DNA of 64,000 bases from Somniosus microcephalus (GCA_052327205.1 CM126226.1:29388001-29452000); one strand, 5' to 3'. Shown: positions 1,196-50,984, numbered from the stretch's first letter. Program-made: numbers and translations. The notes: a model not told the origin generated them from the sequence alone.

Positions 1196-1790
1196 CTAGC
1201 TGGGGGGGCCTGGCGTTGCCAGGGCAGTTTAGAGGGCCGCGCGGTTGACGGCCGGCCGCTGCTGCTCCCCCGCTCTGTGTCTCGGGCTGCGCGGTTGATG
1301 GCCAGCCGCTGCCGCTCCCCCGCTCTGTGTCTCGGGCTAAGCGGCTCTGAGGCCCGGCCCGAGTGACCCCAACTCACCTCCCGCTCCGGCGGGCCGACGC
1401 AGCTGCCCCGCTCACTGTTGAGGAAAAGCAGGGAAAAAATGGCGGGTACGTTTCGGGAGGCTGCAGGATTAGGTCCCGCCCGTGACGCACCGATTGGTCA
1501 ACCATCAGGTCACTGAACTGTAGAATTGGTCAACCATCATGTCACTCAACGCTAATGAGCGGTAGGATTGGTCAACCGCTAATGAGCGGATTTTTGAACG
1601 TTTTTTGTATGCTGTCCGAACAATTTTTGTCTGACCAAAAAGTAAATATGCGTATGACACTCCCCTGATCATCAGCTTTCTTTTGATATAACATATGTGT
1701 AGGTGCGCTCTATAACTTTTGAGTGTATAGTGGACATACAGACATACAGACAGACGGACAGACAGACAGACAGACGGACAGACGGACAGG
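1196..1790 (-). mobile_element. Non-autonomous Helitron-like element (5' end unclear)
   Basis: Minus-strand 3' CTAG (1196-1199) followed by T, a subterminal GC hairpin (GCCTGGC-GTT-GCCAGG), and a (GACA)n tract near the 5' end. The core (~1490-1790) is homologous to the units at 17134-20500. Confidence 0.7.
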
Positions 1791-1847
1791 CACTGCTTGG
1801 GACATTTTTCTGTGTTAAAGTTGCATTTAAGTTGTAGTAGTTGTTGC

Positions 1848-3765: not shown

Positions 3766-5249
3766 TGATTGTAATGGTCTGGGCTGGGAAAGCAAAGTGC
3801 TCTCACAAAACAAATATTTACCCACTCTGTGCTGTCTTCAGCTCAGTGTGGAAAATACATGTTAGCAGCGAATGTAGAGAAGTAGGGTTACAAACAATAG
3901 AACCACTCCGCTGTGAGTACTAAATGGGTAAACAATATCCATGTTGCTGTATTGGTTGCATAAGACTGGGTGGATTGGCTAAATATTGGACGTCCATGTA
4001 AAGTGATGTTTTATGCTGTTACAACAGATGAGGCAGTGGTCACCCCCAATTGATGCCCATGGGAACAGAATGTAGGGAGGAACTTGGGGTAATTGTCCCT
4101 GGTGTACGCAGTGATTCTTACCACTCACAGTCATGAGTTAGTGTCTATCATGGTGTCTTCCAATGCCTGTGTGACTCCTGACCAGATATTTGGTACTGGC
4201 AGTAGTCAGGTAATGCTGTCAGCAGACAGGATTTTTTTAATTTTTATTCGTTTATGGGATCAGGGCGTCACTGGCAATGCCAGCATTTATTGCCCATCCC
4301 TAGTTGCCCTTGAGAAGGTGGTGGTGAGCCGCCTTCTTGAACCGCTGCAGTCCGTGTGGTGATGGTACTCCCACAGTGCTGTTAGGTAGGGAGTTCCAGG
4401 ATTTTGACCCAGCGACGATGAAGGATCGTCGATATACTTCTAAGTCAGGATGGTGTGTGACTTGGAGGGGAACTTGGAGGTGGTGGTGTTCCCATGCGCC
4501 TGCTGCCCTTGTCCTTCTAGGTGGAAGAGGTCACGGGTTTGGGAGGTGCTGCCAAAGAAGCCTTGGCGAGTTGCTGCAGTGAATCTTGTAGATGATACAC
4601 ACTGCAGCCATGGTACGCCGCTGGTGGAGGGAATGAATGTTTAAGGTGGTGGATGGGATGCCAATCAAGTGGGCTGCTTTGTCCTGGATGGTGTCGAGCT
4701 TCTTGAGTTTTTGTTGGAGCTGCACTTATCCAGGCAAGTGGAGAGTATTCCATCACACTCCTTACTTACGCCTTGTAGATGGTGGAAAGGCTTTGGGGAG
4801 TCAGGAGGTGAGACACTCGCCGCAGAATACACAGCCTCTGACCTGCTCTTGTTGCCACAGTATTTATGTGGCTGGTCCAGTTAAGTTTCTGGCTAATGGT
4901 GACCCCCAGGATGTTGATAGTGGGGGATTCAGTGATGGTAATGCCATTGAATGTCAAGGGGAGGTGGTTAGACTCTCACTTGTTGGAGATTATCATGTCT
5001 GGCACTTCTGTGGCACGAATGTTACCTGCCACTTATCAGCCCAAGCCTGAACATCGTCCAGGTCTTGTTGCATGCGGGCATGGACTGCTTCATTATCTGT
5101 GGAGTTGTGAATGGCACTGAACACTGTGCAGTCATCAGCGAACATCCCCATTTCTGACCTTATGTTGGAGGGAAGGTCATTGATGAAGCAGCTGAAGATG
5201 GTTGGCCTAGGACACTGCCCTGAGGAACTCCTGCAGCAATGTCCAGGGG

Positions 5250-7052
5250 CTATGATGATTGACCTTCAACCACCACAACCATCTTCCTTTGTGCTAGGTA
5301 TGACTCCAGCCAGTGGAGCGTTTTCCCCCTGATTCCCATTGACTTCAGTTTTACTAGGGCTCCTTGATGCCACACTCGATCAAATGCTGCCTTGATGTCA
5401 AGGGCAGTCACTCTCACCTTATCTCTGGAATTCAGCTCCTTTGTCCATGTTTGGACCAAGGCTGTAATGAGATCAGGAGCCGAGTGGTCTTGGAGGAACC
5501 CAAACTGGGCATCAGTGAGCAGGTTATTGGTGAGGAAGTCCCGCTTGATGGCACTGTCGATGACACCTTCCATCACTTTGCTGATGATTGAGAGTAGACT
5601 GATGGGGCGGTAATTGGCCGGGTTGGATTTGCCCTGCTTTTTGTGGACAGGACATACCTGGGCAGTTTTCCACATTGTCGGATAGATGCCAGTGTTGTAG
5701 CTGTACTGGAACAGCTTGGCTAGAGGCGTGGCTAATTCTGGAGCACAAGTCTTCAGCACGATAGCTGGGATGTTGTCGGGGCCCATAGCCTTTGCTGTAT
5801 CCAGTGCGCTCAGCCGTTTCTTGATATCACATGGAGTGAATTGAATTGGCTGAAGACTGGTTTCTGTGATGGTGGGGACCTCGGGAGTAGGCTGATATGG
5901 CTCATCGACTCGGCACTTCTGGCTGAAGATGGTTGCAAACACTTCAGCCTTGTCTTTTGCACTCATGTGCTGGGCTCCACCATCATTGAGGATGGGGATA
6001 TTCTTGGAGCCTCCTCCTCCTGTTAGTTGTTTAATGGTCCACTGCCATTCACGACTGGATGTGGCAGGACTGCAGAGCTTTGACCTGATCCGTTGATTGT
6101 GGGATTGCTTAGCCCTGTCTATAGCATGCTGCTTCTGCTTTTTAGTATGCATGTACTCCTGTGTTGCAGCTTCCCCAGGTTGGCACCTCATTTTTAGGTA
6201 TGCCTGGTGCTGCTCCTGGCGTGCTCTTCTACACTCCTTATTGAACCAGGGTTGGTCCCCTGGCTTGATTGTAATGGTAGAGTGAGGGATATGCCGGGCC
6301 ATGAGGTTACAGATTGTGGTGGAATACAATTCTACTGCTGCTGATGGCCCACAGCGCCTCATGGATGCCCAGTTTTGAGCTGCTAGAACTGTTTTGAATC
6401 TATCCCATTTAGCACGATGGAGGGTGTTCTCAGTATGAAGACGGGACTTCATCTCCACAATGATTGTGCGGTCGTCACTGCTGCCAATGCTGTCATGGAC
6501 AGATGCATCTGCGACAGGTAGATTGGTGAGGACGAGGTCAAGTAGGTTTTTCCCTCGTGTTGGTTCCCTCACCACCTGTCGCAGGCCCAGGCTGGCAGCT
6601 ATGTCCTTCAGGACTCGGCTAGCTCTGTCAGTAGTGGTGCTACTGAGCCACGCTTGGTGATGGACATTGAAGTCCCCCACCCAGAGTACATTCTGTGCCC
6701 TTGCTACTCTCAGTGTTTCTTCCAAGTGGTGTTCAACATGGAGGAGTACTGATTCATCAGCTGAGGGAGGGCGGTAGGTGGTAATCAGCAGGAGGTTTCC
6801 TTGCCCATGCTTGACCTGAAGCCATGAGACTTCATGGGGTCCGGAGTCAATGTTGAGGACTTCCAGGGCCACTCCTTCCCGAATGTATACCACTATGCCA
6901 CCACCCCTGGTGGGTCTGTCCTGCCGGTGGGACAGGACATACCCGGGGATGGAGGAGTTCGGGACATTGGCTGAAAGGTATGATTCTGTGAGTATGACTA
7001 TGTCAGGCTGTTGCTTGACTAGTCTGTGGGACAGCTCTCCCAATTTTGGCAC
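5250..7052 (-). pseudogene. LINE ORF2 (APE endonuclease + N-terminal RT), 600-aa open segment
   Basis: APE motifs LTES, YRPP, GDFN, LDL, SD. RT motifs KAMGPDNIP, YRPISLL, QFGF, LDIKAAFDRVWH. A premature TAG lies at 5250. The rest (MFADD near 5130-5146) continues with frameshifts to ~4340. Confidence 0.9.
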
Positions 7053-7524
7053 AAGTCCCCAGATGTTGGTGAGGAGGACTTTGCAGGGTTGACTGCGCTG
7101 GGTGTGCCGTTACCATGTCCATAGCCGGTGCCGAGGTCGATGCCGGGTGGTCCGTTTGGTTTCATTCTTATTATTGTGTTTCGTAGCGGTTAGTTATGAC
7201 TGAGTGGCTGCTAGGCCCTTTCAGAGGGCAGTTAAGAGTCAACCACATTGCTGTGGGTCTGGAGTCACATATAGGCCAGACCAGGTAAGGACGGCAGATT
7301 TACTTCCCTGAAGGACATTAGTGAACCAGATGGGTTTTTACGACAATCCGATAGTTTCATGGTTACTGAGAGTAGATTTTTATTCCAGACTTATTTAATT
7401 AACTGAATTTAAATTCCTGAGCTGCCGTGGTGGGTTTTGAACTCACGTCTCTGGATCATTAATAAAAACAGAAAATGCTGGAGAAACTCAGCAGGTCAGG
7501 CAGCATCTGTGAAGAGAGAAACAG

Positions 7525-7561
7525 AGTTAACGTTTCAGGTCGATGACCTTTCGTCAGAACT
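7525..7561 (-). ncRNA. Minimal type I hammerhead ribozyme motif (left pseudo-LTR)
   Basis: AGTT-CTGACGA-A-AGGTC atc GACCT-GAAAC GT T-AACT: core CUGAnGA and GAAA, perfect stem II, palindromic ACGT stem III, and AGTT/AACT stem I. Confidence 0.7.
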
Positions 7562-7940
7562 GGAAAAAGCAGAAAATGGAACAGATTTTTAAGCAAGTGT
7601 AGGGGCTGGGAAATGGGGGAGGGGATGAAAGAACAAAAGGGAAGGTCTGTGATAGGCTGGAAGGCAGGAGAGATTGAGAGACATTAAGAGATATTCAAGG
7701 CAAAAGGAGATGGTAATAGACAGGTTAAGAAACAAAGGATGGCTCGAGATGAAGTGTAAATTGCGCTGGCAGAATGAAAGACAGCTGCCCTGTGGGAGAG
7801 AAGAAAAAAAAGACAAAGAGTGTAGATAAAACACCCCTTCCCCTTCGCCCGGCACCTTCCCGTGCAAGCGCAGGAGATGCAACACATGCCCTTATACCTT
7901 CCCTCTTCCCACTATCCAGGGCCCCAAACACCCCTTCCAG

Positions 7941-8270
7941 GTGAAACAGCAATTTACTTGTACTTCTTGCAATCTAGTATACTGTATTCGCTGCTCACGA
8001 TGTGGTCTCCTCTACATTGGGGAGACCAAACGCAGATTGGGTGACCGCATTACGGAACACCTCTGTTCAGTCCGTAAGGGGGACCCCGAGCTCCCGGTCA
8101 CCTGTCACTTTAATTCACCACCCCACTCCCACTCAGACCTCACTGTCCTCGGCCTCTTGCATTGTTCCACGGAAGTTCAGCATAAGCTCGAGGAACAGCA
8201 CCTCATCTTTCGATTAGGCACTTTACAGCCCTCTGGACTCAACATAGAGTTCAACAATTTCAGATCATAA
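7941..8270 (+). pseudogene. GIY-YIG endonuclease domain (C-terminus of Penelope ORF)
   Basis: NLVYCIRCSRCGLLYIGETKRRLGDRITEH..LEEQHLIFRLGTLQPSGLN. The RT portion is absent. Confidence 0.9.
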
Positions 8271-8571
8271 CCTCGGCCCCTATCACATATATATATATAT
8301 TTTTATCCACACTCTTTGTCTTTTTTTCTTCTCTCCCACAGGGCAGCTGTCTTTCATTCTGCCAGCGCAATTCACACTTCATCTAGAGCCATCTTTTGTT
8401 TCTTAACCTGTCCCATTACCATCTCCTTTTGCCTTGAATATCTCTTAATGTCTCTTAACCTCTCCTGCCTTCTATCCTATCACAGACCTTCCCTTTTGTT
8501 CTTTCATCCCCTCCCCCCTTTACCAGCCTCTTCACTTGCTTAAAAATCTGTTCCATTTCCTGCTTTTTTCC

Positions 8572-8608
8572 AGTTCTGACGAAAGATCATCGACCTGAAA
8601 CGTTAACT
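8572..8608 (+). ncRNA. Minimal type I hammerhead ribozyme motif (right pseudo-LTR)
   Basis: AGTT CTGACGA AAGATCATCGACCT GAAACGTTAACT. Stem II has one mismatch relative to the left copy. Confidence 0.65.
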
Positions 8609-8830
8609 CTGTTTCTCTCTTCACAGATGCTGCCTGACCTGCTGAGTTTCTCCACCATTTTCTGTTTTTATTTCAGATTTCCAGCATCTGCAGTATTTTC
8701 TTTTTGCCTCTGGATCATTAGGCCAGGCCTCTGGATTACTAGCCCAGTGACATTACCACTACGCTACCATTCCCATGTATAGCGCAGCAACAAAGGATAG
8801 ACCGGATAGAACGTGAAGCAGAAGGGAAGT

Positions 8831-9439: not shown

Positions 9440-10570
9440 TCCAGCCCAGTCAATGCTGACAGGGTATAGCAGTCCAGCTAACATTGACAGGATGTATAAC
9501 ACAGCTCAGCCAATGCTGACAGGTTGTATAGTATAGCCCAGCCAACAATAACAAGGTGTATAATACACTGCAGCCAATGCTGATAGGAACACAGGAACAG
9601 GAGCAGGCTATTCGGTCCCTCGAGCCTGCTCCGCCATTCAATTAGATCATGGCTGATCTGTACCTCATCTCCATTTACCTGCCTTAGCTCCATATCTCTT
9701 GAAACCCTTACCTAACAAAAATCTATTGGTCTCAGTCTTGAAAGCTCCAATTGACCCGCATCCACAGACTTCTGGGAGAGAGCATTCCAGATTTCAACTA
9801 CCCTCTGTGTGAAAAAGAGCTTCCTGATTTCGCTCCTGAACGATCTAGCTCTAATTTTAAGATTATGTCCCTCGTTCTTGATTTCCCCACCAGGAGAAAT
9901 CATTTCCCTGTATCTACCCTATCAAATCCTTTTAACATTTTAAACACCTCGATCAGATCATCCCTCGATCTTCTATACTCAACAGAATACAAGCCAAGTT
10001 TATGCAACCTGTCTTCATAATTTAACCTGCTAAGCCCTGGTATCATTCTGTAGGTTGTATGACACTGACAGAGTGTACAACACAGTGCAGGCAACATTGA
10101 CAGGGTATATAACACAACCTAGCCAGCATTGACAGGGTATATAACACAACCTAGCCAGCATTGACAGGGTGTATAACACAACCTAGCCAGCATTGACAGG
10201 GTGTATAACATAACCTAGCCAGCATTGGCAGGGTGTATAACACAAACTAGCCAGCATTGACAGGGTGTATAACACAACCTAGCCAGCATTGATAGGGTGT
10301 ATAACACAACCTAGCCAGCATTGACAGGGTGTATAACACAACCTTGCCAGCATTGACAGGGTGTATAACATAACCTAGCCAGCATTGACAGGGTGTATAA
10401 CACAACCTAGCCAGCATTGACAGGGTGTATAACATAACCTAGCCAACATTGACAGGGTGTATAACACAACCTAGCCAGCATTGACAGGGTGTATAACATA
10501 ATCTAGCCAACATTGACAGGGTGTATAACACAGTGAAGCCAATGCTGCTAGGGTGTATAACACAGTGCAG
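9440..10570. repeat. 32-bp minisatellite (ACACAACCTAGCCAGCATTGACAGGGTGTATA), split by a CR1 insertion
   Basis: About 13 near-identical units at ~10110-10530 (period 32, e.g. starts at 10144 and 10176). Diverged units lie at 9440-9585 and at the edges. Confidence 0.9.
9586..10050 (-). mobile_element. CR1 (HER1-type) LINE 3' fragment
   Basis: RMIPGL..YEDRLHKLGLYS..DLIEVFK and FFTQRVVEIWN, with the CR1 3' UTR hairpin and tail. Confidence 0.9.
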
Positions 10571-10582
10571 TTGCATTGCCAT

Positions 10583-11052
10583 GTGTCAGTCTTGGTTAAG
10601 TGGTAATATTCTCACCTCTGAGTCAGAAGGTCATGGGTCAATCTCCAGTCCAGAGACTTGAGCATGTAATCTGGGTTGACACTTCAGTGCAGTACCGAAG
10701 GAGTGCTGCACTGTTGGAGGTGTTGTCTTTCGGATGAGACGTTAAACCAAGTCCCTGTCTATCCTCTCAAGTGGATGTAAAAGATCCCACGACACTATTT
10801 GAAGAAGAGCAGAGGAGTTTTTCCCGGTATCCTGGCCAATATTTATCCCTCTACCAACATCACTCAAGTTATCGGATTATCTGGTTATTTATCTCATTGC
10901 TGTTTGGGGCACTTTTCTGTGCACAAATGGACTGCTGCGATTCCTACATTACAGCAGTGACTGTACTTTGAAAGTACTTTATTGACTGTAATGTTCTTTG
11001 GGCTGCCCTGAGGTTGTGAAATGCGCTTTATAAAAGTAAGTTCTTTCTTTTT
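10583..11052 (+). mobile_element. tRNA-derived DeuSINE (SacSINE1-like)
   Basis: tRNA-like head, central GATGAGACGTTAAACC..GTAAAAGATCCC domain, and L2-type tail ending in TTCT repeats. Confidence 0.8.
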
Positions 11053-11904
11053 TTGTAGAAGAAGCCAAATTTGCTCCAGTACGTGAATAAGATCACAGCT
11101 GCTCCACACCAGATCACTCTGCTGTACATGGCAGCAAACCTGTCGTTTCATATCAGATGGCGTGCAGTGATGTGGAAAGTATAAGGCACAGGGTACGTTC
11201 ATTTTACACCACTTCACTCTGGAGTTAGTGCTTCCACCAGGAATACATTACCTCAAGACAGCAGGAATTTTTGAAATTAGTTGATCTGACTCCACCTTTA
11301 TAATGAAAGGAATGTCGGTTTATCGAAGAGCCCTGAACTTTATGAAAGCTGACAGCAGTGAAGTGATGTGAGATTTTTTACAGTGTGTTGCCAGGCACTG
11401 AGTCAAACAAACAGCAGCTACTATCACTTTCAGTGAAATACCTGAAGGCTGAGGGCATCGCTTACGCAGAATGTCCTGTTCAGAGCTTCAAAGCTGAAGG
11501 GTGTGGTAATTAATGAATGATTTCACCCAGATATAATGACAGGGTTTGGAAACATTTCAAAACCACTTACCCGCCATGTGATCAGGTTTCAGTGAAGGTT
11601 ACACAGAAGAAGTAACGTCGTCATCGTGGTCAAGCTCCTCACCCAGGAAAGTATTCTACCATGACAACAGAATAGTGGAGGCACAAGAGTGAGAAATGAC
11701 GGGGGTCCATGTGAAGGTGAGGGTAACAGCCAATGGACCAGTTATATTCCGCAATTTGCTTTGATGTGAATTGGTTTTGACTTTGCACTGATACAAGCTG
11801 TGTCGTGTGATTCAGGTGTGAAGTCGCCAAGTCACATTTAGGCAATTCAGGTGAAACAACTCTCCAGAAGGCAGTTTAACACCACTTTGCTTTACACCCC
11901 TTGC

Positions 11905-15301: not shown

Positions 15302-15757
15302 AAGAAAGACTTGCATTTATATAGCGTCTTTCACGAACTCAAGACGTCCCAAAGTGTTTTACACCCAATGACGTACTTTTGTAGTGTAGTCACTGTTGTA
15401 ATGTAGAAAATGCGGCAGCCAATTTGTGCACAGCAAGATCCCACAAACAGCAACATGATAATAACCAGATAATGTGATGTTGATTTAGGGATAAATATTG
15501 GCCAGGATACTGGGGATAACTCCCCTGCTCTTCTTTGAAATAGGGCCATGGGATCTTTTACGTCCACCTGAGAGAGCAGACGGACCTCAGTTTAACATCT
15601 CATCCGAAAGACGGCACCTCCAACAGTGCAGCACTCCCTCAATACTGCACTGGAGTGTCTGCCTAGATTTTTGTGCTCAAGTCTCTGGAGTGGGACTTGA
15701 ACCCACAACCTTCTGACTCAGAGGTGAGAGTGCTGCCCATTGAGCCACGGCTGACAC
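15302..15757 (-). mobile_element. tRNA-derived DeuSINE (SacSINE1-like), full length
   Basis: Minus strand GTGTCAGCCGTGGCTCAATGG..GGTTCAAGTCCC (A and B boxes), Deu-type centre, and tail CTATATAAATGCAAGTCTTTCTT. Confidence 0.85.
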
Positions 15758-17133
15758 TTGACCTTGATCAAAGAACTCAGAAACAGAAAACCAAAAAACA
15801 CCTCAAAGTGGAGATTTGACACTACATCGTGGGGCAGAGGAATGGCGGAAGATAAGCAAGGAGAACTTTTTTAAAAAGTCAATAAATATCACTTAACCAG
15901 CTCTGAAAAGATTCTGTGAGGGGGGAAAAGCTTAGAAAATTATGAGATGCCTTACGTACAGAGCAAGACTGGATGTGGTAAGACTGCACAATAATCCTAA
16001 AGGGACAGTGTGCCATGATGGTTGCTGCTTGCATGATTACCTGTTTGTATTGAGGATGAAGGAGTGATGATGAATGACTGACAGCACCATTAACAAACTG
16101 CTACTTCAATCAGTGGAAACTCGTTTTGTTGTTTTGACACTCACCTGTTTATTGATATTTGGAGCTGTGCGGTACATTTATAGTTTCCTGACTGTTGTCA
16201 AGTTGCATGCCTTTGTTCCCAGCTATTCGTACTTTGAATCATGTGGGCGCATTGTGTTTACAGAATATAATTAAAAAGTCTCATAAAATCAGTTTACCTA
16301 GAGGAAAGATGGCCTGTTGCCAACAATATATTTTCTCTTTATTACCCTCTGGCAGACCAGATTCAATGAGGTTATTAATGAGGGTTGTCATCAGCAGTTC
16401 ACAGGTTTCTAAGATCTGGTGTTTGGAGACATTTGGAATCCATATCTGACTTGTACAAAATTCATCTCCTTCGAATCTGAATCTGAATCTGAAGTTTGCA
16501 TTTCAAATGTTTAGTGTGAGCATTGAGACTGGTGGGGTTCAGACCACTGTACGGACCACACACAACTGCCAGGGAATCGTTACAGTCTTATTAGATAAAC
16601 TGGGATGTTAGAAATTTTGGGCCTGCCTCACATATTCTCTTGGGTTCAGCAGCATTGGTCACTCCCGTAAGTGGTCCCCGCATCTTACATTTAGGAGGGT
16701 GCTTGCACTGTCTACTATCTAACCACATAATTAACTTAACCCGGGGCATATTGTGTCTTTCGCATGTGCTCTCACATGCACTTCTCCAATTGTTCAGCAG
16801 GTAAACTGATAACAAATTTAATATAAATCGTAAAGCTGATTTTACACAGGGTCTGGTTGACTCCCCTGGAGCTTACTGGCCTCCCTCTCAGTACACCTCA
16901 CCAACTGACTTCCCCAAATGTGGGCTTTGTTCTCTTGTTTCCTGTCCCACAGGAAGTTGGGGCTTGATTCCTGATCCGTCCCTTGTCCAGGGTTGGTCAG
17001 TAGAGTTGCCACTCAACCCTCCTACCACCTCTCCACCCCCATCATAAATCCCTAGAAAATATCTCCTTCTATTCACAAAAGGAATGGGACTATTTTGACT
17101 AATCTAGAATTAGTCAATTGTTATGTAATGTTA

Positions 17134-17822
17134 CTAGCTGGGGGGAGCCTGGCTTTGCCAGGGCTGTTTTGGGCTGGGCGGTTTAAATCGAGTGCGAGGC
17201 TTTGGGGCCTCTCTGTGTCCCTCTGTGAATCTGCTGCCGGGCAACATTTTAAATTGAGTCCCAGGCTTTTGGGCCCTGTCTCTGTCCCTTTGTGAATCTG
17301 CTGCCGGGCAACATTTCTACCTTTTAATACCTTGAAAGATGAAAGTGAAAGTACTTATAAAACGTTTTTGGTAAATCTTATGTTATTTTTAAAAGAGATA
17401 CTAACTTTTTCAAAGCTGGATGATCAAAGTAGTTTGAGCTGGAAGCTGAAGTAATGGCAGTGAAACAATGGCTGCCACATCCCCGAGATGAAAACGATTA
17501 GTCCCACACACACACACCGATTGGCCAACCATCAGGGGACCGTATTGTAGGATTGGTCAATCGTGACGGTGGAACCTTGACGTCAGTCAATCAATGCTAA
17601 GTAGCAGATAATGAGTTTAATTTTGAAGGTTTTTTGCATAAGGCGCGAACAATTTTCGTCCGACCGAAAAGTAAATATGCTTACGACCGTCCCGGAACCG
17701 TAAGCTTTCTTCGGAGGTAACGCGCGCGTAGGTAGGCTCTATAACTTTCGAGCGCATAGCCGGACAGACGCACACCTGAGGACAGAAGGACAGACAGACA
17801 GATCGACTCGTTTATATATATA
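17134..17822 (-). mobile_element. Non-autonomous Helitron-like unit 1 (family A)
   Basis: 3' CTAG at 17134-17137 next to the target T, hairpin AGCCTGGC-TTT-GCCAGGGCT, and (GACA)n plus (TA)n at the 5' end. Confidence 0.8.
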
Positions 17823-19620
17823 CTAGCTGGAGCGCCCGGTGGTGCCGAGGCTTTTTCGAGGGCATGTTGTTGTTGGAAGAGAGAGAGAGAGAGCGACTGG
17901 GTGGAAGAGAGAGAGCGACTGGGGGGAAGAGAGAGAGTGACTGGGGGGGAGAGAGAGCGACTGGGGGGAAGAGAGGGCGGGGAGGGGGAGGGCGGGGAGG
18001 GCGGGGAGGGGGCAGGGCGGGAGGGCGGGGAGGGGGAAGGGCGGGGGGGAGGGGGGAGGGCGGGGGGGAGGGCGGGGGGTGGGGTGGAGGGGAGGGGAGG
18101 GGGGGGAGGGGAAGGGGGGAGGGTAGGGGGGAGGGCGAGGGCAGGGGGAGGGCGGGGGGGAGGAGGGGGGAGGAGGGCGGGGAGGAGGGGGGAGAGGAGG
18201 GCGGGGAGGAGGGGGGGAGGGGGAGGGAGGAGGGGGGAGGGGGAGGGAGGAGGGGGGAGGAGGGGGGAGGGGGGGGGCGGAGGGCGGGGAGGGGAGGAGG
18301 GGGGGAGAGGAGGGGGGTGAGGAGGGGGGGGAGAGAGACAGAGGGAAGGAGAGAGAGAGGGCGAGTGGCCCGCGGCCGCAAATGGAGCCAAGCCCCAAGA
18401 ACAGGCATGAGCCGGCTTGAGGCTGAGAGACGGCCACGCCCGGTTGCCGGGGTAACCCTTCCCCCCCTTCCGAGCCCCCGTCCTCCCGAGCACCGGCTGC
18501 ATCGCCCCGCCCCGCACTCCACTCCCGAGAGCCCCGCTCTCCAAGCCCCGCCTGCCCCGCAGTCCCGAGAGCCCCGCTCTCCGAGCCCCACCCCGCCCCG
18601 CCCCGCACTCCCGAGAGCCCCGCCCGCCCCGCCCCGCACTCCCGAGAGCCCCGCCCGCCCCGCCCCGCACTCCCGAGAGCCCCGCTCTCCGAGCCCCGCC
18701 CCCCCGGCCGAGCCGGCTTGAAGTCCGCCGATTGCGGCTGTGCAAGACGGCCGGCGGGCCCGGTTGCCGGGGTAACCCTTCCCGCTCACCAAGCCCTGGC
18801 CGAGATCCGCACTCCCGAGAGCCCCGCCCCCCCCGCCCGAGCCGAGCACGGAACAGAGAGAGATGCCACGTCTCAGCTGCTCCTGCTGTGCGCACACCCT
18901 GACCCTCGTGGCTGACGTCGTTGCCCCGGGTAACGTGACACAGGGGGGCGGTGAGGAGCTTAGCAGAAGCCGTGGGAGAATTACCTAGGTCGGGCCTGGC
19001 TGGGCAAGAAACACCCAGGCTTTCAGGCCTAACAAAAACGGGGAAAGGTAGGAAAAAGAATCTTCAGGTTAGAGAAAATATTTACAAATGAATGAAGATT
19101 TTTTTAAAACAATTTAATAAATTCAATTTTATTTTGCTGGAAATGTATATTTGAAACGAAAGACGCAGAAAGCAGGAAAAAGAATGGAAGCAAGATGGCG
19201 GCTACTCACCTCGGTTCAGAACGATAAGGCCCGCCCACACCGTCAGGTGACCAAAGCGTAGGATTGGTCAATCGTCCCGTCACTCGACCGTAGGAGGGCC
19301 CGGCCGCACGCGGCAACAACCCGTCGTACGATTGGTCGACCTCGAGGTCTCTCTGTCGCTAATGAGCGGATAATGAGATGCTAATGAGCGAAATGTTGTA
19401 GGTTTTTCGGATACCGCGGGCGCGATTTTTGCCCGGCCGAAACGTAAATACGCTTAAGACCGTTTTGGAAAGGTAAGCTTTCTTTCGACGTAACGCACGC
19501 GTAGGTACGCTCTATAACTTTCGAGCGCATACCAGACAGACGCACACGTGATGACAGACAGACAGACAGACAGAAGGACAGACAGAAGGACAGACAGATC
19601 GACCGATTTATATATATAGA
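17823..19620 (-). mobile_element. Non-autonomous Helitron-like unit 2 (family B) with a GC-rich internal segment
   Basis: Has its own CTAG (17823-17826), bulged hairpin and 5' TC (plus-strand GA at 19619-19620). Its 5' ~330 bp is homologous to units 1 and 3; the interior is unrelated. Confidence 0.75.
17880..18365 (+). repeat. G/GA-rich low-complexity tract with high G-quadruplex potential
   Basis: Dozens of G3-G8 runs separated by short linkers. Confidence 0.9.
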
Positions 19621-19626
19621 TAGATA

Positions 19627-20500
19627 CTAGCTGGGGGAGCCCGGCTTTGCCAGGGCTGTTTTGGGCCGGGTGGTTTAAATCGAGTGCCAGGCTTTGGGGC
19701 CTCTCTGTGTCCCTCTGTGAATCTGCTGCCGGGCAACATTTTAAATCGAGTCCCAGGCTTTTGGGCCCTGTCTGTGTCCCTTTGTGAATCTGCTGCCGGG
19801 CAACATTTCGACCTTTTAATACCTTGAAAGATGAAAGTGAAAGTACTTATAAAAGGTTTTTGGTAAATCTTATGTTATTTTTAAAAGAGAAACTAACTTT
19901 TTCAAAGCTGGATGATCAAAGGGCTTTCAGGCCCTGTCTCTCTCTCCCTGTGTGAATCTGCTGCCGGGCAACATTTCTACCTTTTAATACCTTGAAAGAT
20001 GAAAGTGAAAGTACTTATAAAACGTTTTTGGTAAATCTTATGTTATTTTTAAAAGAGATACTAACTTTTTCAAAGCTGGATGATCAAAGTAGTTTGAGCT
20101 GGAAGCTGAAGTAATGGCAGTGAAACAATGGCTGCCACATCCCCGAGATGAAAACAATTAGTCCCACACACACACACCGATTGGCCAACCATCAGGGGAC
20201 CGTACTGTAGGATTGGTCAATCGTGACGGTGGAACCTTGACGTCAGTCAATCAATGCTAAGTAGCAGATAATGAGTTTAATTTTGAAGGTTTTTTGCATA
20301 AGGCACGAACAATTTTCGTCCGACCGAAAAGTAAATACGCTTACGACCGTCCCGGAACCGTAAGCTTTCTTCGGAGGTAACGTGCGCGTAGGTACGCTCT
20401 ATAACTTTCGAGCGCATAGCCGGACAGACGCACACCCGAGGACAGAAGGACAGACAGACACAGATCGATTCATTTATATATATATATATAGATAGATAGA
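19627..20500 (-). mobile_element. Non-autonomous Helitron-like unit 3 (family A, with ~166-bp internal tandem duplication)
   Basis: Near-identical to unit 1. CTAG at 19627-19630; 5' TC at 20499-20500 preceded by target A (20501). Duplicated block at ~19756-19921 and 19922-20089. Confidence 0.8.
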
Positions 20501-22027
20501 TGTACTCAGGACAAAAAAAGGCCATCAAGCCATCACCCCACTGCTTACAAGACTCATCCCTGTATCTCCACCTTTCCGTTCCTCCCCCAGTTCCTGGGAG
20601 ATGCAGGGGCAGGGGGAGGGAGAAGGGATATGAGAAGAGGAGGGGGAGAGGGAGTAGAGGAGAGGGGACAACAGTGGATAGGGAAGGGTTGGGGACATAG
20701 GACCAGGGCCAATTTTCCTCTCAGTGGGAGGAGGGAGCTGCACTGAGCCAGAACCCAATGACAGCTCCATTGGAGGAGTGGGGGGCGGGGGGGAGGGGAA
20801 GCGTTTTTAGCTCAGGTTTTACGGTGGTGCTGAGTTGCTTGTGGGTGAGATGCTGGGTGGGATTCTGCTCAGTTGAGGTGGATTTGTTCTTTGGCTGGGA
20901 GGACGGGGTTGACCTCAATATCTGATAAGTAGAGTTGGGAGAAAGGTACTTGATGGGTGGATGGTGGCTGCTATCTCTGCTCACTGGGAGTGTACTGTTT
21001 ACTATCTTTGCTCAATGAGGTGGGGTCATATTGGTCTCTATCTCTGCTAAATGGGGGAAGGGATAGCGGTGTCTGAAAAGTGGAGTCAGGAAACTTGCAT
21101 CTATCCTGTGCTCAATGAGGGGAGGGATTTTGGCTCTTATCTATGCTCAGTGAAGGGCAGGCGTTTGGCCCTTATCTATGTTGAGCGGAGTTTCTTTGAT
21201 AATTGCTATCTTTGCTGATTGGTGTGGGCTGGTTTAGCCAGGAGAGTTGCACAGTTGATGGGGTGAAACACTGTCTGATCAGTTTGGTCGAGAGATGAGG
21301 TACTTGGAGATATATCTGATTTTAAATACTAGAGTTGCGTAAGGAGTGTTATACCTTGAGGCATTAATGTGCCGTGACAGGCAGTAGAGGTATGGTGAAT
21401 CAACAGGAGGTGCCCGTTCATAGACCTGAGCAGCGTGGAACAGTTAAACCAAATCATGTGCTCTATATACACGTGGATTACTCCACTCAGCCTGACCTAG
21501 AATTTCCTCAAGTTATTTGTCCAGATATCGTAAAAGGCAGTGAGAAACAGGAACTTATATAATGATTTTTACACAAAGGAGCTTTAGTAAGAGCTGGTAC
21601 TTATTGGATGTACGGAGTTGTGTGCTTGTTGGGATTAGTTAATTGAAGCTTTACCCTCACAGAAAGAAATGGATATTAAATGTACTAGACCATACTGGCT
21701 GGAATCCAATTACATGAATCACAAACCAGAGTGGGCAAGTTGCAAAAAGACCGGGTCATAGGATAGATTGAGTCAGACTGTGAAATGGCTTGTGCATCAT
21801 CACACTGTGGAACAGTTTCATTGGTAAATGGGAAACCAATATTCTCAGTGTGTTCACTGGCAGTTCCACAAGTTTAGGAATCCAACAATGCTGTAATGCA
21901 TTGTCCTTCCCCCAATGCACCAGTGGTTATTTCATTGTTTCCCTCCATTGATAAAGCTGCTAAGGCTTCAGTCCCTGTGGCTGCTGCCACCTTAATCTGG
22001 ATCCAAGTGTAAAATTCACTTTAAAGC

Positions 22028-25289: not shown

Positions 25290-27152
25290 TATACCAGTAC
25301 ACCAGCTTTTATTATAAAAAAAAATCCTGGACAGGGAGCCTCTCCACAGGCTCTGTTCGTTTTGGTCTGAATAAATAAATCATTTTCTAAATACAAGCAA
25401 ATTAAAGACAATAAAGAGTAAAATCACACACTTGCAGCCGGAGGCAAGAAAATTAAATTCAGAGTTAAATAAATAAAAAAGAGAGTCAGGTAGGAAAGCG
25501 CAGAATAAATACAGCTTAAATTAAACATCATATTTTTCCTTTTTAAGCAAAAGTTTCTATCTCAAACTATTTCTGAAAAGATTTACAAAATATATATATA
25601 TATATATATCTGTCAGATTCCTATAAATCAGGAGATAAAATTCAGGCTGTGCAAATTCACTTTCTTTTTTGTTTTTAATTTAAAAAATAACCTAGATTTG
25701 GAAAAAAGGATTCCCCCCCCGCCCATCAATAATGTTGTGTGCAAAACTCCCCCCCCAGACAACGAGCTACATTGTCCTTATTGCTATTTTGTTTAAGGAT
25801 CATTACGGAAGTGCGTTACAATTACACACAGACATCAGGAGAGGGAACCTCTGAAATGGGAATGTTTGCAGGACGTGGAGATCAGACACTGAATTTCAGG
25901 GGAGTTTACCTTTGGGATTTAGCAATATGGTGCATTGTTGGCCGCTTGTATTAACAGTCATAGTACCCATCACTGCACCTCCAGGAGTGGGTAGAGGTAG
26001 TCTTTGAACTGGCCGAGTGGCTCATGACTGCCATCATTTGGATGTGGTAGGAAAACCTGCCCCTCATTATACATGTGATGAAATATTGCCCGACTGGCAA
26101 TAGTGCTCCCATTGGATTTTAAACACTAGCCCAACATCCAGAGGACGTACCCAGTGCCCCATTGTGTGGTAGTGTGTTCCAACTGTTTGATCACACACAC
26201 AAGGACGACCGTCATCTTTCATGGGCACCAAGCATGTTCCAGCCCAAATCGTGGGAGATCGGGAATGCACCATTACAATGTGGAAATCATTCATTAGGGC
26301 CTGATGAAAGGATTATCAGGTCAGCCAACTGAGAAATGATGTGTGCGCTTCAGCCAGTCGTGGCTTGACTGTCACATCATTTCTAGAGTTTAAAATGGCG
26401 TTAAACATGTTTAAAGTTTGCAAAAATTACATTTATACAGTCGTTGAATTAGTGTTCTACACGCCATCTATTAAACTTGGTCTGGTTTAACTCCAAGTTT
26501 GCTAACAGCAAGCTGGTGCATCAGACCCTAAGAAATAGGAAATGTAGAGTTCAAAAAAATAAATGTTTCCTGAGAGAGTCTCAACTTTAATATAAAAGAA
26601 ACTCTGAAGATGGGGTTAGATAAGGAGACATGCCCTGCGACAGTCCTATTACTGGGCACTGGTGGGGGGGGGGGGGGGGTGGTGGGGGGAGTTCCCCTGT
26701 TGCTCATAAAAGAATGAAGCCAACAAACCAATCTACAATGTACTGATTAAACTACACACTGCCCAATAGAACTGAATGCTGTTTGGATCCAAATGAACCA
26801 TTTCATTCCCTCCACTCACACTCACACACACACACAGCACCTACTCAGCAATTCAATTATGGCCACTTCAGCTCAAGATCTTCTGGATGGCTCCCCGTCC
26901 TCCCAAGACAGAGTCGTGTTGGACCCTTGCCAGTGGGAATCCCAAAAACTGGAAGAGAGAAGTCATGAAGTCCGCCTGGTTCCCTTTTTTTTTCCTCCTC
27001 CAAATTTTAAAAAAGAGAACCGAGTTTCTCTCCAGCGCCAGGTCCCTTCAGCACTCTCAAGTACATAATCATTGTCCCATTCAAGTATTGCAAGTCATGT
27101 GGAAAAGGTTTTTTTGGGGGGGGGGGGTTACCCCCTGGGATGCAGGAAGAGT
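25290..27152 (-). other. EPHA2: EPHA2 3' UTR (predicted)
   Basis: Lies between the stop codon and the AATAAA/GU-rich signal. Contains ATTTA clusters (~25370-25510) and two miR-26 seed matches. Confidence 0.6.
25308..25313 (-). terminator. EPHA2: Probable EPHA2 polyadenylation signal (AATAAA)
   Basis: Plus-strand TTTATT. On the minus strand it is followed by a GU/U-rich tract (GTGATTTTTGTTTTTTTT) and preceded by an AU-rich region with several ATTTA motifs. Confidence 0.65.
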
Positions 27153-29901: not shown

Positions 29902-30096
29902 GAGTGAATGGGCTGGATATTTACTGGGGAGGGATGTGTAGGCAGGGCGAGTGGATTGGCTGGATATTTACTGGGGAGGATTGTGTCGGCAGGGCGAGTG
30001 AATGGGCTGGATATTTACTGGGGAGGATTGTGTCGGCAGGGCGAGTGGATTGGCTGGATATTTACTGGGGAGGATTGTGTTTGCAAGGCGAGTGGA
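29902..30096. repeat. 47-bp minisatellite, ~4 copies
   Basis: GAGTGGATTGGCTGGATATTTACTGGGGAGGATTGTGTCGGCAGGGC units start at 29902, 29949, 29996 and 30043. Confidence 0.9.
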
Positions 30097-32792: not shown

Positions 32793-33572
32793 CAGGTAGA
32801 CTATCCTTTATCCGAACTTCCGAAAACCTCTAAAAACCAAAAGTTTTTTCATTCAGCGTAAGTCGTGCGCACGACATGACCAGAGTGGCGCACGACTTAC
32901 GCTGAGCAGGGCAGAAGGTCAGAGTTCCCTCCTGGGTAGGAGATTGCAGGCCGAGCCGGGCAGTGTGAAGGAGGTACCGGGAGAGTGAACCCAACAATAC
33001 AGCGGCCCGTCCGATAGCTGCAGCGGCCCGTCCGATATTCTTTTCTCCCCCCCCACCCCCCGACCCGACCCAAACCGCGGCCCGTCCAATATTCTTTTCT
33101 CCCCCCCCCCGGATATTCTTTTCTCCCCGACCCAACCCGACCCGAACGATATTCTTTTCTCCCCCCCCACCCCCCGACCGACCCAAACCGCGGCCCGTCC
33201 GATATTCTTTTCACCCCCCCCCCCGGATATTCTTTTCTCCCCGACCCAACCCGACCCGAACGATATTCTTTTCTCCCCCCGACCCCCGCCCGACCTGAAC
33301 CGCGGCCCGTCCGATATTCTTTTCTCCCTCCCCACCCGACCCCCGACCTGATTTGCGGGCCAGCTTAGTAGGAGTCAGCCAATATCCGGCTTTCCAGAGA
33401 AGCAGGAAGGGGAATGAGACACGGAACAGTCGCAAGAGGTAGCCTGAACTTTTAAAATTTATATTAAATACAAATTTTCCAGTCTTATAATAATACCTTC
33501 TGAAATCCGAAAAATTCCGAAAACCGAAACTCAGCTGGCCCCAAGGCTTTCGGATAAGGGATAGTGTACCTG
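32793..33572. mobile_element. Tc1/mariner (pogo/Tigger-like) MITE with internal tandem repeats
   Basis: TIRs CAGGTAGACTATCCTTTATCCGAA and TTCGGATAAGGGATAGTGTACCTG, with TA on both flanks. Confidence 0.85.
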
Positions 33573-44719: not shown

Positions 44720-45049
44720 CCGTCTCGTTAATTAAGGCAACAGCGCTGGCGACACTGCGCGTGAAGCTCTGGTCGGACACTCCATTCCTCGCTTCAACCT
44801 TGAAGGTATAGTTGGTGTGTGGCTCCAGCTCCACCACACTCACGGTGGTCTCCATAAATGGGAACTGCCGGGTAAAGCGGACACCCGCCTCGCAGGGTTT
44901 GCAGTTTCCCGTGTCCCAAGCGCAGCGCTCGCACACCACACTGTAGGTGAGGTCGCTGCGGCCCCCGGTGTCACTGGGCGGCATCCACTTCAACAGAACG
45001 GTGGAACCCACGGCAGTGGCGGTAACGGCCTCGGGCATGGAGGGCGGCC
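44720..45049 (-). CDS. EPHA2: EphA2 exon 5 equivalent: FN3-1
   Basis: (R)PPSMPEAVTATAVGSTVLLKWMPPSDTGGRSDLTYSVVCE..LEPHTNYTFKVEARNGVS..INET; 330 nt. Confidence 0.96.
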
Positions 45050-45224
45050 CTGTAGATTAAACACAATAGAAACATTAAGTCACCACACCGCTGCCGGGGG
45101 ACGGCTTATTCGGCGATAGAGAAGACCCACATGAGCACACTGCTCATCCTGGCTGGCCCCAACCTCACTCTGGGGACAGACAGGGGCAGAGGCCTATACT
45201 CCAGGGTTCAACAATGAAGGCTTT

Positions 45225-47173: not shown

Positions 47174-48162
47174 TAGAAGCATTGGCTTTGCACTTAGGAG
47201 TGGAGCAGAGAGAGATAGGCTACTTTGTGTAGGAGAGTTCAAGATGTCTCTCCAGTCGAGAGCTCATGAGTGGCTGGGTTAAGTGATTTCAATTTACTTG
47301 TGTAAACAGAATGTCAACTGCCTGACAATCAGACTATTGTAACTGTCAAGCTTGTCATTCTAATGAAAGGAGTCAGTAGGTACCAATTGTGCAGTCCTGA
47401 AACCCTGTCCGTCCGGAGGCTGCTTCTCTCACTTTGGGGGAATTTCTGGTATTTTCCTGCATTCCAACCCGACACGTACTCAGCAGCTGGGGGGACAACT
47501 GCTCCAAGCAAACAGCCACCTCCTGTTGGTTACACAGAGTGGGTTCAGAGCTGGGGGCCTGAGTTTATGACAGGGGATATAACAGTTCCTCTGTGTACAC
47601 AGCAGAGCACAGCTGACCTCGTAGGCAAGTTGTGTGCTGAGCGCATCCAGTCACTCCGAGAGAACATTCCCAACATAGACAAAAGGCTGAAGAGGAGGAG
47701 GGGGGAAAAAAAAAAGGACGGGTTCTTCACACGACCTCAGGCATTCTCACCCCAACTGGTTTGTTCATTCCACTTCGCCAGCAACCAAGTGACAGACAAC
47801 CAACTGGCTCATCAAATTAACTGAGCACGGAGCATGCATTAAACAGAACATGGAGATTCCCCTTCCCAGTCCTGCACCCATCTCTTAAACACTAGCATCT
47901 GCCTGCTGTTGGGCATTCTATGAACTTCCAGATGTTCCATTCACCTCTTGCTTGAAAATTACCATTTGTAATATTAGCAGATGATTGCTTTACATGTTCA
48001 TATGACAACCCTCTGACTGCAATTTCAACAGAGGTGTTGACGCTCCTCTGCTATTATTCGATGTTATGTAAATGTACACAGTGTTCATACGCCAACACCG
48101 CACATTGCAAATCACCAATTCCTAGGTTCACAGCATTTGATGATGTTTTTGCATCTATGCCG

Positions 48163-48581
48163 GGTCAGCCGTGGCTCAGTGGGCAGCACTCTGGCCGGAG
48201 TCAGGTGGTCATGGGTTCAAGTCCCACTCCAGGGACTTGAGCACAAAAATCTAGGCTAACACACCAGTGCAGTGCTGAGGGAGTGCGGCACTGTCGGAGG
48301 TGCCAATGAGACGTTAAACCGAAACCCTGTCTGCTCGCTCAGGTGGATGTAGAAGATCCCATGGCACTATTTTGAAGAAGCGCAGGGGAGTTGTCCCCGG
48401 TGTCCTGGCCAATATTTATCCCTCAATCAACATCACTAAAACAGGTTAGCTGTGCGCAAATTGGCTGCCATGTTTCCTACATGACTACACTTCAAAAAAG
48501 TACTCCATTGGCTGTAAAGTGCTTTGGGATGTCCTGAGGTTGTGAAAGGTGCTATATAAATGCAAGTCTTTCTTTCTTTCT
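48163..48581 (+). mobile_element. DeuSINE (SacSINE1-like)
   Basis: GTCAGCCGTGGCTCAGTGG..GGTTCAAGTCCC head, Deu centre and (TTTC)n tail. Confidence 0.85.
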
Positions 48582-48611
48582 ATGCAATGAGAGCCATTTA
48601 GAGGGAAAATA

Positions 48612-49015
48612 AAGAACTTGTATTTATATAGCATCTTTTATGACCTCAGGACATAGCAAAGTACCTTTTACAACCAATTAAGTACTTTTGAAGTGTGGTC
48701 ACTGTTGTAAGGCAAGAAACAAGACAGCCAATTTGCACACAGCAAGCTCCCACAAACAGCAATGAGATAATAACCAAATCATCTGTTTTAGTGATGTTGG
48801 TTGAGGGATAAATATTGGTCAGGACACTGGGGAGAACTCCCCTGCTCTTCTTTGAATGGTGCCATGGGATCTTTCACCTCCACTCGAGAGGTTGAATGTC
48901 TCATCCGAAAGACGGCATCTCCAACAGTGCAGCACTCCCTCAGTACTGAACCGGAGTGACAGCCTAGTTTTTGTGCTCAAGTCCCTGCAGTGGGACTTGA
49001 ACCCACAACCTTCCA

Positions 49016-49046
<31 letters not shown>

Positions 49047-49056
49047 CTGGCTGACC
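48612..49056 (-). mobile_element. DeuSINE (SacSINE1-like), tail-to-tail with the previous copy
   Basis: Reverse complement of the same family, with A and B boxes at ~48990-49050. Confidence 0.85.
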
Positions 49057-50984
49057 CCTTATTATGGAATGAAACACAAACTATTTGCAAAACCCCAAAG
49101 ATGACTTGGAATGACTGGGTCCTAAAGCATAAACACACCCCATTGTCCAAATTGGCCTGCATTTCTCGTACAAGCAGTCTTCAATAACTGCGGAGCTGGT
49201 ACACAAGGACAGCAAGAATTGTTCATCTCTCAAACTGTGCTCACTGCCTTTGGGTTGTCCCAATTCATCTGAACATTAATCATCAGAATCAAAAGGGAAC
49301 GAGAGTCCCTTTGACAGCAACTCAAGACACATTTTCATATTCTAGAGGACATTCACTGACAGGGTCGTGTCGGCACTGACATCCTGCTTAATAATGATGT
49401 CAAACAGCTGCCCAAATAGCAAGAGACCTCAAATGGCACAGCTGCTTTATAGCGGAGACCCTGGGAGAGCAGGAATGGTGAGGCTGCTTTGTTCGAGCTA
49501 AGAGCTCATATTGAGCCAGGCTTGCAGTTAATAGAATAGGAATGTCTATCTCGGCAGCAGTAATACTAATGCACTCAGGAGCGAGGCTGACATGCTCAGG
49601 GCTCAGTCAGAATGCCCGGCTATTCTGTCTATTCATTGTTAACAAAGTGAAGCCGGGCCCCTACAGGCTGCCTCAATACTGCTCGTTGTTGAGGGATTAA
49701 CACTGGTTCTGTATCTGTCGTATTCCCGTGGCCTGGTACGCACCCAATAGTACATGGTATTTCATGAATGGAAAAGGTTTAGATCACATGGGACCAATGA
49801 CCCACGAATAAATTTTAGCATTCATCACAAAACTATGGTGTTTCTTTCAAAATGAGAGTTCAATTGTTCCCCCCAAACAGGAGAGAGATCCTGAGGATGT
49901 GGGGACATCCTCTTTGTGCCTGGTGCTAGCAGTAGAGACCAGACTGCATGGCGCAGCACATACCAGGAGAGATCACGCCCAGAGCACCCTTGGAATGAAA
50001 AAAAAATCACAGGAAGGAGTTTTGTCTACCAGAGCAACACCCTCCTCTACCCCACCCCCTCCACTTCAAGTGCTGGGCTGGCCTCTTCTGACAGTCTTGG
50101 TGAACATACAGTTTGAGCGAAGTAACACTGCTCTGTTATTGGGAGGGTAGATTTCCGCCTGATCAGGAGGATACACATCTGCTAACACAGTTCAAAAGCA
50201 CTCAGAATTCCCATGTAAAGCAGAGATCGTCTTCGTCTCCTGTGGAGAGGAGGAATTCTAAGAATATCTCAGTTTGTTTATTCTGGGTCACTGGTGAGTT
50301 TCCAGTTTGGGGCAGAAATCGGATGCAAGATTATGGTACAACAGTGGCTTCACGTCTCTGCTGGACCTGTATTGTTGGATACAGTACCAAAAAGGAAAAC
50401 ACTTTTAAACTCAAGCGGGATTATACGGAGGAGAACTCTCTAGAAGGGCCTCTTCTCTAGGAGTTGCATGATTACCTACGCACACTGGGGCAGGAATTCC
50501 TCAGGCCTTCCGGCAGCAGAAGAGCTGGAAAGCAGACCAGGACCTGGACATGCCTGATCCCGGCCTTACATCGGAGATCCTACTCGATCTTCCAAGGGAC
50601 AGAGCGCCCGCCCACCCATTACAAAGCCACTGAGTGTTCCGGGGCAGGGGCTCCTTACATTGGGACCTTAGCCTGGTGGAAGGTCGGGGAATCTTTGGAG
50701 ACTGGTACACCCACGAGGAAGAGGCCTTTATTGCCAGATGTGAAGACCACTTTGGGGCTCCAGGGAAGCAGCCTGGACTGTAGAAGCTCAATTTTAGCAT
50801 CTGTAATACAGCCCCCTTACAAAGGGGACTGTTGGAGGCTGAATCGGAATGTTTTCAGGGGCCTTTAACATCCCTCTGGCCTGGACAGCAAGGCTGCATT
50901 TGTGGCATCCTGCAATAGTCAGGAACCAGAGATGTACTCCTAGTGGTTTGGGCACCAACCAGCATTATTTAAAACGGGTGAACG

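Follow-up and report, generated by a model that had tools for sequence, protein, structure and literature searches.

Background

It has been reported that canonical Helitrons begin with TC, end in CTRR with a palindrome of 16-20 nt about 11 nt from the 3' end, and insert between A and T without a target-site duplication (TSD) (PMC4067079, PMC4778049). In the circles formed by Helraiser, TC is joined precisely to CTAG (PMC4778049), and, according to an argument of Pritham and Feschotte given by Du 2008 (PMC2267711), elements that inserted independently keep bases of the target between CTAG and TC. In the maize r1 region, adjacent Helitrons of the same orientation were explained by different elements inserting one after another (PMC2267711), and four arrays derived from Heli1Xen1 have been described in X. 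laevis (PMC12001565). Helitrons have been inferred for the vertebrate ancestor (PMC4350176) and are listed among the repeats of the whale shark (PMC8455134). The locus analysed here lies in a window of 64,000 nucleotides of Somniosus microcephalus (GCA_052327205.1 CM126226.1:29388001-29452000), in which an array of three units occupies positions 17134-20500. The units are non-autonomous canonical Helitrons (Helitron1-type) of one shark family, and the array is probably a nest of three such elements, with units 2 and 3 inserted in the head of unit 1 and all of them moved in trans.

Structure and classification of the array

GTTA precedes the array and TGTAC follows it, and its three units all lie on the minus strand (Table 1). 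The C at 17134 opens the CTAG, and the A at 20500 closes the TC head of the array. In each of the three units the 3' end consists of a hairpin and CTAG followed by T, and the outer 5' end reads host A|TC. Self-BLAST of the window revealed a fourth copy of the family at 1196-~1792 (hereafter the solo copy), which an earlier description of the array had overlooked, and a profile search of the window recovered no copies beyond these four. T follows CTAG at all four family ends, compared with 71 of the 324 CTAGs in the window, and the 20 nt beyond each of these ends have an AT content of 70, 80, 75 and 90%, against a mean of 57%. The 8-mer CAGCTAGT occurs four times on both strands of the 64 kb, once at each of the four 3' ends, and a 13-bp core motif is present exactly four times, once per family copy. 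No TSD of 2-20 bp was found at the array boundaries. An earlier note on this DNA had described a three-unit minus-strand array with hairpin and CTAG ends, the bases TAGATA at 19621-19626 and insertion at A|T without a TSD, and all of these points were confirmed. TSD candidates obtained by shifting the boundaries were only 4-5 bp matches, which were traced to a host microrepeat and rejected.

The four copies fall into three subfamilies: A (units 1 and 3), B (unit 2) and C (the solo copy). All three have a (TGTC)n tract and a 5' core in common. Core identity is 97.5% between units 1 and 3, 81% between unit 2 and each of them, and 69-76% between the solo copy and A and B. The solo copy is the only dispersed one in the window and lacks its 5' end. 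Within the last 30 nt, it agrees with units 1 and 3 at 27-28 positions, and unit 2 with the others at 21-22.

The family hairpins are 18 nt long and end 11-13 nt from the 3' end in all four copies. Their folding is individually modest (z of -1.7, -0.5, -1.8 and -1.8 for units 1, 2, 3 and the solo copy; 11, 58, 11 and 11 of 200 shuffles, respectively, fold as well). Taken over all copies, 27 of 28 stem cells are paired, with T-A, C-G and T-G variants at one pair. A hairpin upstream of CTAG is not rare in the window (23/324); T comes next in 6 of these 23, the four family ends among them. Inside unit 2, a further hairpin with CTAG at 18985 has the best fold (z -2.7) and shares its 3' stem arm with the true ends; it is followed by G, matches the true ends at 19-20 of 30 nt, and was not recovered by the end profile. 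It is possibly a bypassed terminus of unit 2. Strong hairpins before CTAG, then G, were also seen in copies of a dispersed repeat of ~450 bp (48254, 48964, 15663), which forms an inverted pair at 48162-49057 and is also present at 10580-11057 and 15302-15760.

The units were classified from their ends and coding content. Together they show TC, CTRR (CTAG in four of four copies), a palindrome about 11 nt from the end, A|T insertion and no TSD. Each unit had been described as starting in a TC/(TA)n tract. This was borne out at the outer end and in unit 2, while unit 1 has no TC adjoining its body and regains one when the nested units are lifted out; the solo copy has none. In a Pfam scan, none of the 215 open reading frames (ORFs) of at least 75 aa in the window carried a Helitron (RepHel) domain, and therefore the elements are non-autonomous, as the earlier note had proposed. 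The Pfam domains detected in window ORFs were only Eph-receptor, reverse transcriptase (RT)/endonuclease and GIY-YIG domains, and the long ORFs spanning unit 2 are low-complexity, with no Pfam family. Rfam gave nothing in the window at the gathering score and nothing in 17000-20700 at E up to 1, ARAGORN detected no tRNA genes, and blastn of the 5' 361 bp of unit 3 against phage records, from which little was expected, gave no match.

Two other classifications were considered. The copies could be read on the plus strand as a short interspersed nuclear element (SINE) or other non-LTR (long terminal repeat) retroposon that has a 3' tail of (GACA)n(TA)n and entered the tails of copies already present. 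Such an element would fit the sharp GC-rich plus-strand start, the microsatellite at the opposite end with the conserved core beside it, and weak A-box-like matches, with one mismatch, in three of four copies. However, there is no B box, each copy contains 5-14 runs of at least four T on the plus strand, neither a tRNA or Rfam match nor similarity to the long interspersed nuclear element (LINE) fragments of the window was found, and the Helitron end geometry is present in all four copies, which makes this origin very unlikely. A Helentron-associated element (HINE/DINE-1 type) is suggested by the 5' microsatellite and the internal tandem repeats, as in DINE-1-like elements. However, the subterminal inverted repeats of 12-15 bp expected of such elements are absent: three of four copies have no exact match of at least 7 bp, and the sole inverted-repeat match is an 8-bp microsatellite match in unit 3. 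In addition, the target is A|T and not TT, and the ends are TC/CTAG and not T-strings. The Helentron classification is largely refuted by the inverted repeat test and retains hardly any probability.

Probable formation of the array by nested insertion

Both internal junctions of the array read CTAG|TA and neither reads CTAG|TC. Units 1 and 3 are thus not a precise head-to-tail dimer, whose rolling-circle junction would be CTAG|TC. Their near-identity had been noted before and stands (15 substitutions in 688 columns, 97.8%), while the head-to-tail arrangement ascribed to them is not supported as stated, and they further differ by a 168-bp duplication. Unit 2 belongs to a different subfamily by both its core and its last 30 nt, and therefore it cannot be a concatemer copy.

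To account for the junctions, parses of the array were enumerated under the rules that every element starts with TC, ends with CTAG and enters at A|T, with no base gained or lost. Among the 10 resulting rows, one leaves unit 1 without TC, in five the empty site retains 2-10 extra host bases, and in four it is clean. All four clean parses place units 2 and 3 both inside the head of unit 1, in agreement with the earlier claim that unit 2 is nested in the TA head of unit 1. In the simplest of them the unit 1 head is TC(TA)7AA, and the heads of units 2 and 3 each carry one extra TCTA. All junction bases are accounted for, without any mutation, by three A|T insertions. The head of unit 1 begins with TA directly after the CTAG of unit 2, and its own TC is not beside its body. 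The clean empty site also has modest independent support: with it the flank regains a 9-mer that recurs with period 10, a property shared by 3 of 43 comparable background positions.

These facts suggest the following course. Unit 1 would have arrived first, between host A and T, bringing a head of the TC(TA)n type. Units 2 and 3 would each have followed in the same orientation, at A|T sites 2-6 bp apart inside this head, and these nested insertions would have produced the CTAG|TA junctions and displaced the TC of unit 1 from its body. A RepHel encoded elsewhere would have acted in trans; both its role and the order of events are inferred.

Units 3 and 1 could instead have arrived together as a rolling-circle dimer, whose junction TC later changed to TA and whose unit 1 lost one 168-bp repeat before unit 2 entered its head. 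The close identity and common orientation of the two units and their equal loss of CpGs (5 vs 5) are in line with a dimer, and tandem Helitrons are on record in bats, plants and Xenopus. However, the junction is CTAG|TA instead of CTAG|TC, two extra events (junction change and deletion) are required, and unit 2 already proves that head-nesting took place at this very site, so that we regard a dimer as unlikely. It is similarly improbable that the nest was assembled elsewhere and moved here as one composite Helitron, from the outer TC through two internal terminators. The entire 3.4 kb does have valid outer ends and a single clean A|T site, and Helraiser is able to bypass its 3' end (PMC4778049). 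However, two intact hairpin-CTAG ends would have to be bypassed, no second composite exists in the window, and a composite relocates the nesting without explaining it. A false duplication of one element during assembly was also considered, as unit 2 holds a long low-complexity G-rich tract that is difficult to sequence. Such an artefact is most improbable: the differences between units 1 and 3 have a biological, CpG-biased spectrum (~15-fold), the flanks have no second copy in the window, and the junctions follow Helitron rules.

Several observations weigh against serial nesting in the head of unit 1. The evidence comes from one locus, and the empty site was reconstructed, not observed. A single C-to-A change in this slippage-prone tract would mask a true CTAG|TC dimer junction, and the equal CpG loss in units 1 and 3 (5 and 5) is what a simultaneous dimer would give. 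Five of the 10 parse rows are compatible with unit 3 lying just in front of unit 1 (2 bp) and not inside it. The solo copy lacks a TC head, so that the 5' rule is drawn from the array, and the covariation in the hairpins, judged over four sequences, does not reach significance (242 of 500 shuffles). No Helitron is present in three further TA tracts of the window that measure at least 8 nt, and Helraiser has been reported to show no local hopping (PMC4778049). Serial nesting nevertheless remains the reading that we consider the most probable, and under it the locus separates serial nesting from rolling-circle concatemers at the base level.

Proposed repeated use of one Helitron head

Two further insertions in one head of ~16 bp have a naive chance of ~1e-5 under uniform use of ApT (calculated post hoc, for one locus), and some strong target preference is therefore needed. 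Helraiser favours AT-rich targets, the preference being strongest on the 3' side of the insert, and it nicks left ends that are single-stranded at the border of flank and TC (PMC4778049). The head offers A|T with an AT-rich 3' side and would resemble the end nicked by RepHel, which is the likely reason for its repeated use. A preference for (TA)n in general and one for the Helitron head specifically would both account for this one locus.

A more far-reaching proposal is that the family targets its own 5' heads, as TC(TA)n would mimic the RepHel nick site, giving stacks of the same orientation in which (TCTA)n scars are left by re-mobilisation from the outer TC. This is possible, although we hold it to be doubtful. 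The mimicry and the origin of the (TCTA)n prefixes in front of units 2 and 3 as nesting scars are inferred, and slippage explains the prefixes equally well. If the proposal is true, serial self-targeting would be a route to Helitron arrays separate from rolling-circle concatemers, and promoter-like cores with CCAAT, YY1-like and X-box-like motifs would be piled up beside genes. Head-targeting across the genome would bear on the target choice of RepHel and on the origin of Helitron arrays; if it is not general, the array amounts to nesting of the usual kind in AT-rich target DNA.

Subfamily features and promoter-like motifs

The 168-bp duplication of unit 3 bears on the history of subfamily A. 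Differences between its two repeats fall almost wholly within one contiguous block, and unit 1 agrees fully with one repeat over the 5' part and, but for one difference, with the other over the 3' part. The duplication is therefore older than the split between units 1 and 3, and the lineage of unit 1 has lost it. This pattern favours two different source copies for units 1 and 3, and a deletion in place would remain compatible with it.

The solo copy contains 50-bp tandem repeats at 1234-1338; its 3' flank opens with TC, and the sequence beyond is not of the family. Beside its missing 5' end lies an ORF at 1841-2173, for which Pfam gave nothing at E up to 1 and which resembles a Harbinger-type nuclease fragment.

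Promoter-like motifs of the CCAAT, YY1-like and X-box types were searched, and the family copies are not independent of each other. An extended CCAAT box occurs twice in each copy, always in sense orientation, and the family accounts for 8 of the 20 in the window. Plain CCAAT is not enriched (9/180, p=0.79; 2-3 per copy, shuffle P 0.08-0.24). A strict YY1-like motif follows downstream in unit 2 and in the solo copy. All three X-box-like (RFX-type) palindromes of the window fall in the interior of unit 2 (18443-18934) together with many GC boxes, and two of them derive from an internal duplication ~320 bp apart. By analogy with bat Helitrons (PMC4778049, PMC4224331), the promoter-like content may be a remnant of a RepHel promoter or a captured host promoter, and the region 18443-18934 of unit 2 is possibly a captured CpG-island promoter.

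Age and CpG decay

The observed/expected ratio of CpG is 0.77-0.91 in the units. The background has a value of 0.36, and only one of its 85 tiles reaches the range of the units. Ten of the 15 substitutions between units 1 and 3 are CpG transitions, five lost in each unit, at about 15 times the non-CpG rate, as expected of methylated copies decaying in place. After insertion the copies would thus have been methylated and then have undergone CpG decay. The CpGs, once described as intact, are in excess, though 5 have been lost from each of units 1 and 3. The recency proposed from intact CpGs and high identity holds only relative to the other repeats of the window: no other repeat pair of at least 250 bp there is as similar as units 1 and 3, which are young by this measure, while the 10 transitions mean that decay has already begun. 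The mutation rate of the epaulette shark is 7e-10 per generation, with an interval that spans tenfold (PMC10587355). At this rate, 1.9-13.7 million generations would be needed for the five non-CpG changes seen in 610 sites, and the figure is a maximum should part of the differences stem from different source copies.

Neighbouring gene and other repeats

Minus-strand exons in the window encode an Eph receptor, and the EPHA2 exons span 25300-47300 in the same orientation as all four Helitron copies. The fibronectin type III (FN3) exon matches EphA2 structures at 1e-29 and EphA4 at 2e-21. In a protein search of this exon, restricted to longer proteins and E up to 1e-20, all 7 matches among 407 candidates were from sharks or rays, the best being the sawshark Pristiophorus japonicus (91% identity). 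The sequence itself therefore points to a shark host, probably a squalomorph. The array was said to lie ~4.8 kb downstream of the EPHA2 poly(A) site, with which the AATAAA at 25313-25308, predicted from the sequence and not from transcripts, agrees.

Other repeats were recorded as well. A LINE ORF2 remnant on the minus strand (4996-7109) has an open stretch of 619 aa with endonuclease and RT domains. At 7461-8699, inverted repeats of 370 bp (95% identical) surround a GIY-YIG ORF, and the whole looks like a Penelope-like element. Minisatellites are present at 10066-10532 (32 bp, 14.6 copies, with a degenerate relative at 9442-9588), 29902-30096 (47 bp) and 33033-33333 (114 bp).

Table 1 Features of the Helitron family and of its surroundings in the 64-kb window
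Feature	Position	Strand	Remarks
Unit 1 (subfamily A), body 689 bp	17134-17822	-	3' CTAG at 17134; head (TA)5AA, no adjacent TC; probable founder
Unit 2 (subfamily B), ~1.8 kb	17823-19626	-	3' CTAG at 17823; 5' TC at 19624 or 19620
Unit 3 (subfamily A), 874 bp	19627-20500	-	3' CTAG at 19627; 5' TC at 20500, 20496 or 20492
Solo copy (subfamily C)	1196-1792	-	Same 3' hairpin and CTAG|T; no TC(TA)n head; 5' boundary approximate
Left flank	17119-17133	+	With 20501-20504, a 9-mer repeated at period 10; second copy split by the array
Outer head (TCTA)2 TC (TA)n AA	20472-20500	-	Preceded by host A at 20501
Leftover TA and TCTA (TAGATA on plus strand)	19621-19626	-	Between unit 3 CTAG and unit 2 minimal head; remnant of interrupted head, or host TA
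Subterminal hairpin, unit 1	17147-17164	-	7-bp stem with bulge
Subterminal hairpin, unit 2	17834-17851	-	C-G where unit 1 and solo copy carry T-A
Subterminal hairpin, unit 3	19639-19656	-	T-G wobble at the pair that is T-A in unit 1
Internal hairpin and CTAG, then G	18985-19020	-	642 bp from unit 2 5' end, similar in length to the short subfamilies
Conserved 5' core	17470-17765, 19190-19535, 20130-20425, 1435-1738	-	Each copy with two CCAAT-box-like motifs; a YY1-like one in unit 2 and solo copy
(TGTC)n microsatellite, unit 2	19553-19598	-	Counterparts at ~17763-17802, 20423-20464, 1733-1789
Two 66-67 bp tandem repeats, subfamily A	17182-17316, also 19674-19808	-	
168-bp internal duplication, unit 3	19756-20089	-	Copies 94% identical
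GC-rich interior peculiar to unit 2	17884-18984	-	Purine-rich low-complexity tract, 31-bp minisatellite, GC boxes, X-box-like palindromes at 18443, 18763, 18920
AATAAA, predicted EPHA2 poly(A) signal	25308-25313	-	~4.8 kb from the array; from sequence, not transcripts
EPHA2 FN3 exon	44736-45050	-	

Comparison with known Helitrons

A literature search covering open-licence texts, listings and the starts of abstracts gave no account of the family and none of systematic nesting in heads, a negative that counts as weak evidence, and a full-text search for the 13-bp core motif returned 0 papers. That sharks contain Helitrons, and that Helitrons can be adjacent, was already known. The preferential targeting of existing Helitron heads is a lead hinted at by this locus. 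A GACA microsatellite is also a feature of the Lep1 elements of Lepidoptera. Shark repeats are mostly LINEs, with Helitrons recorded as present (PMC8455134), and the array represents a well-formed Helitron family among them.

The family shares with the bat elements Helibat and Helraiser the 5' TC, the 3' CTAG, the palindrome about 11 nt from the end, the A|T target without TSD and the AT-rich 3' flank (PMC4778049, PMC4067079). It differs from them in that no RepHel is encoded in the window and the internal junctions are CTAG|TA, in contrast to the precise head-to-tail joining in Helraiser circles; the likeness is one of features. Lep1 elements are similarly short and non-autonomous, start with TC, end in CTRR, insert at A|T and have acquired subfamily-specific 3' sequence (PMC4038834). 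Membership in Lep1 is defined by at least 70% identity over more than 100 bp to a 134-bp consensus, and Lep1 copies measure ~190-340 bp around this consensus (PMC4038834), compared with 600-1800 bp for the shark family, which resembles them in design. Promoter-like motifs inside a non-autonomous Helitron are also found in HelibatN3 and other promoter-carrying bat Helitrons (PMC4224331, PMC4778049), whereas in the shark family the likeness is one of motifs, and no donor gene was identified. The adjacent Helitrons of maize r1 and the perfect head-to-tail ones of Myotis are described with CTAG|TC junctions (PMC2267711), whereas target bases lie between CTAG and TC in the shark array, which further differs in that two subfamilies are interleaved within one head.

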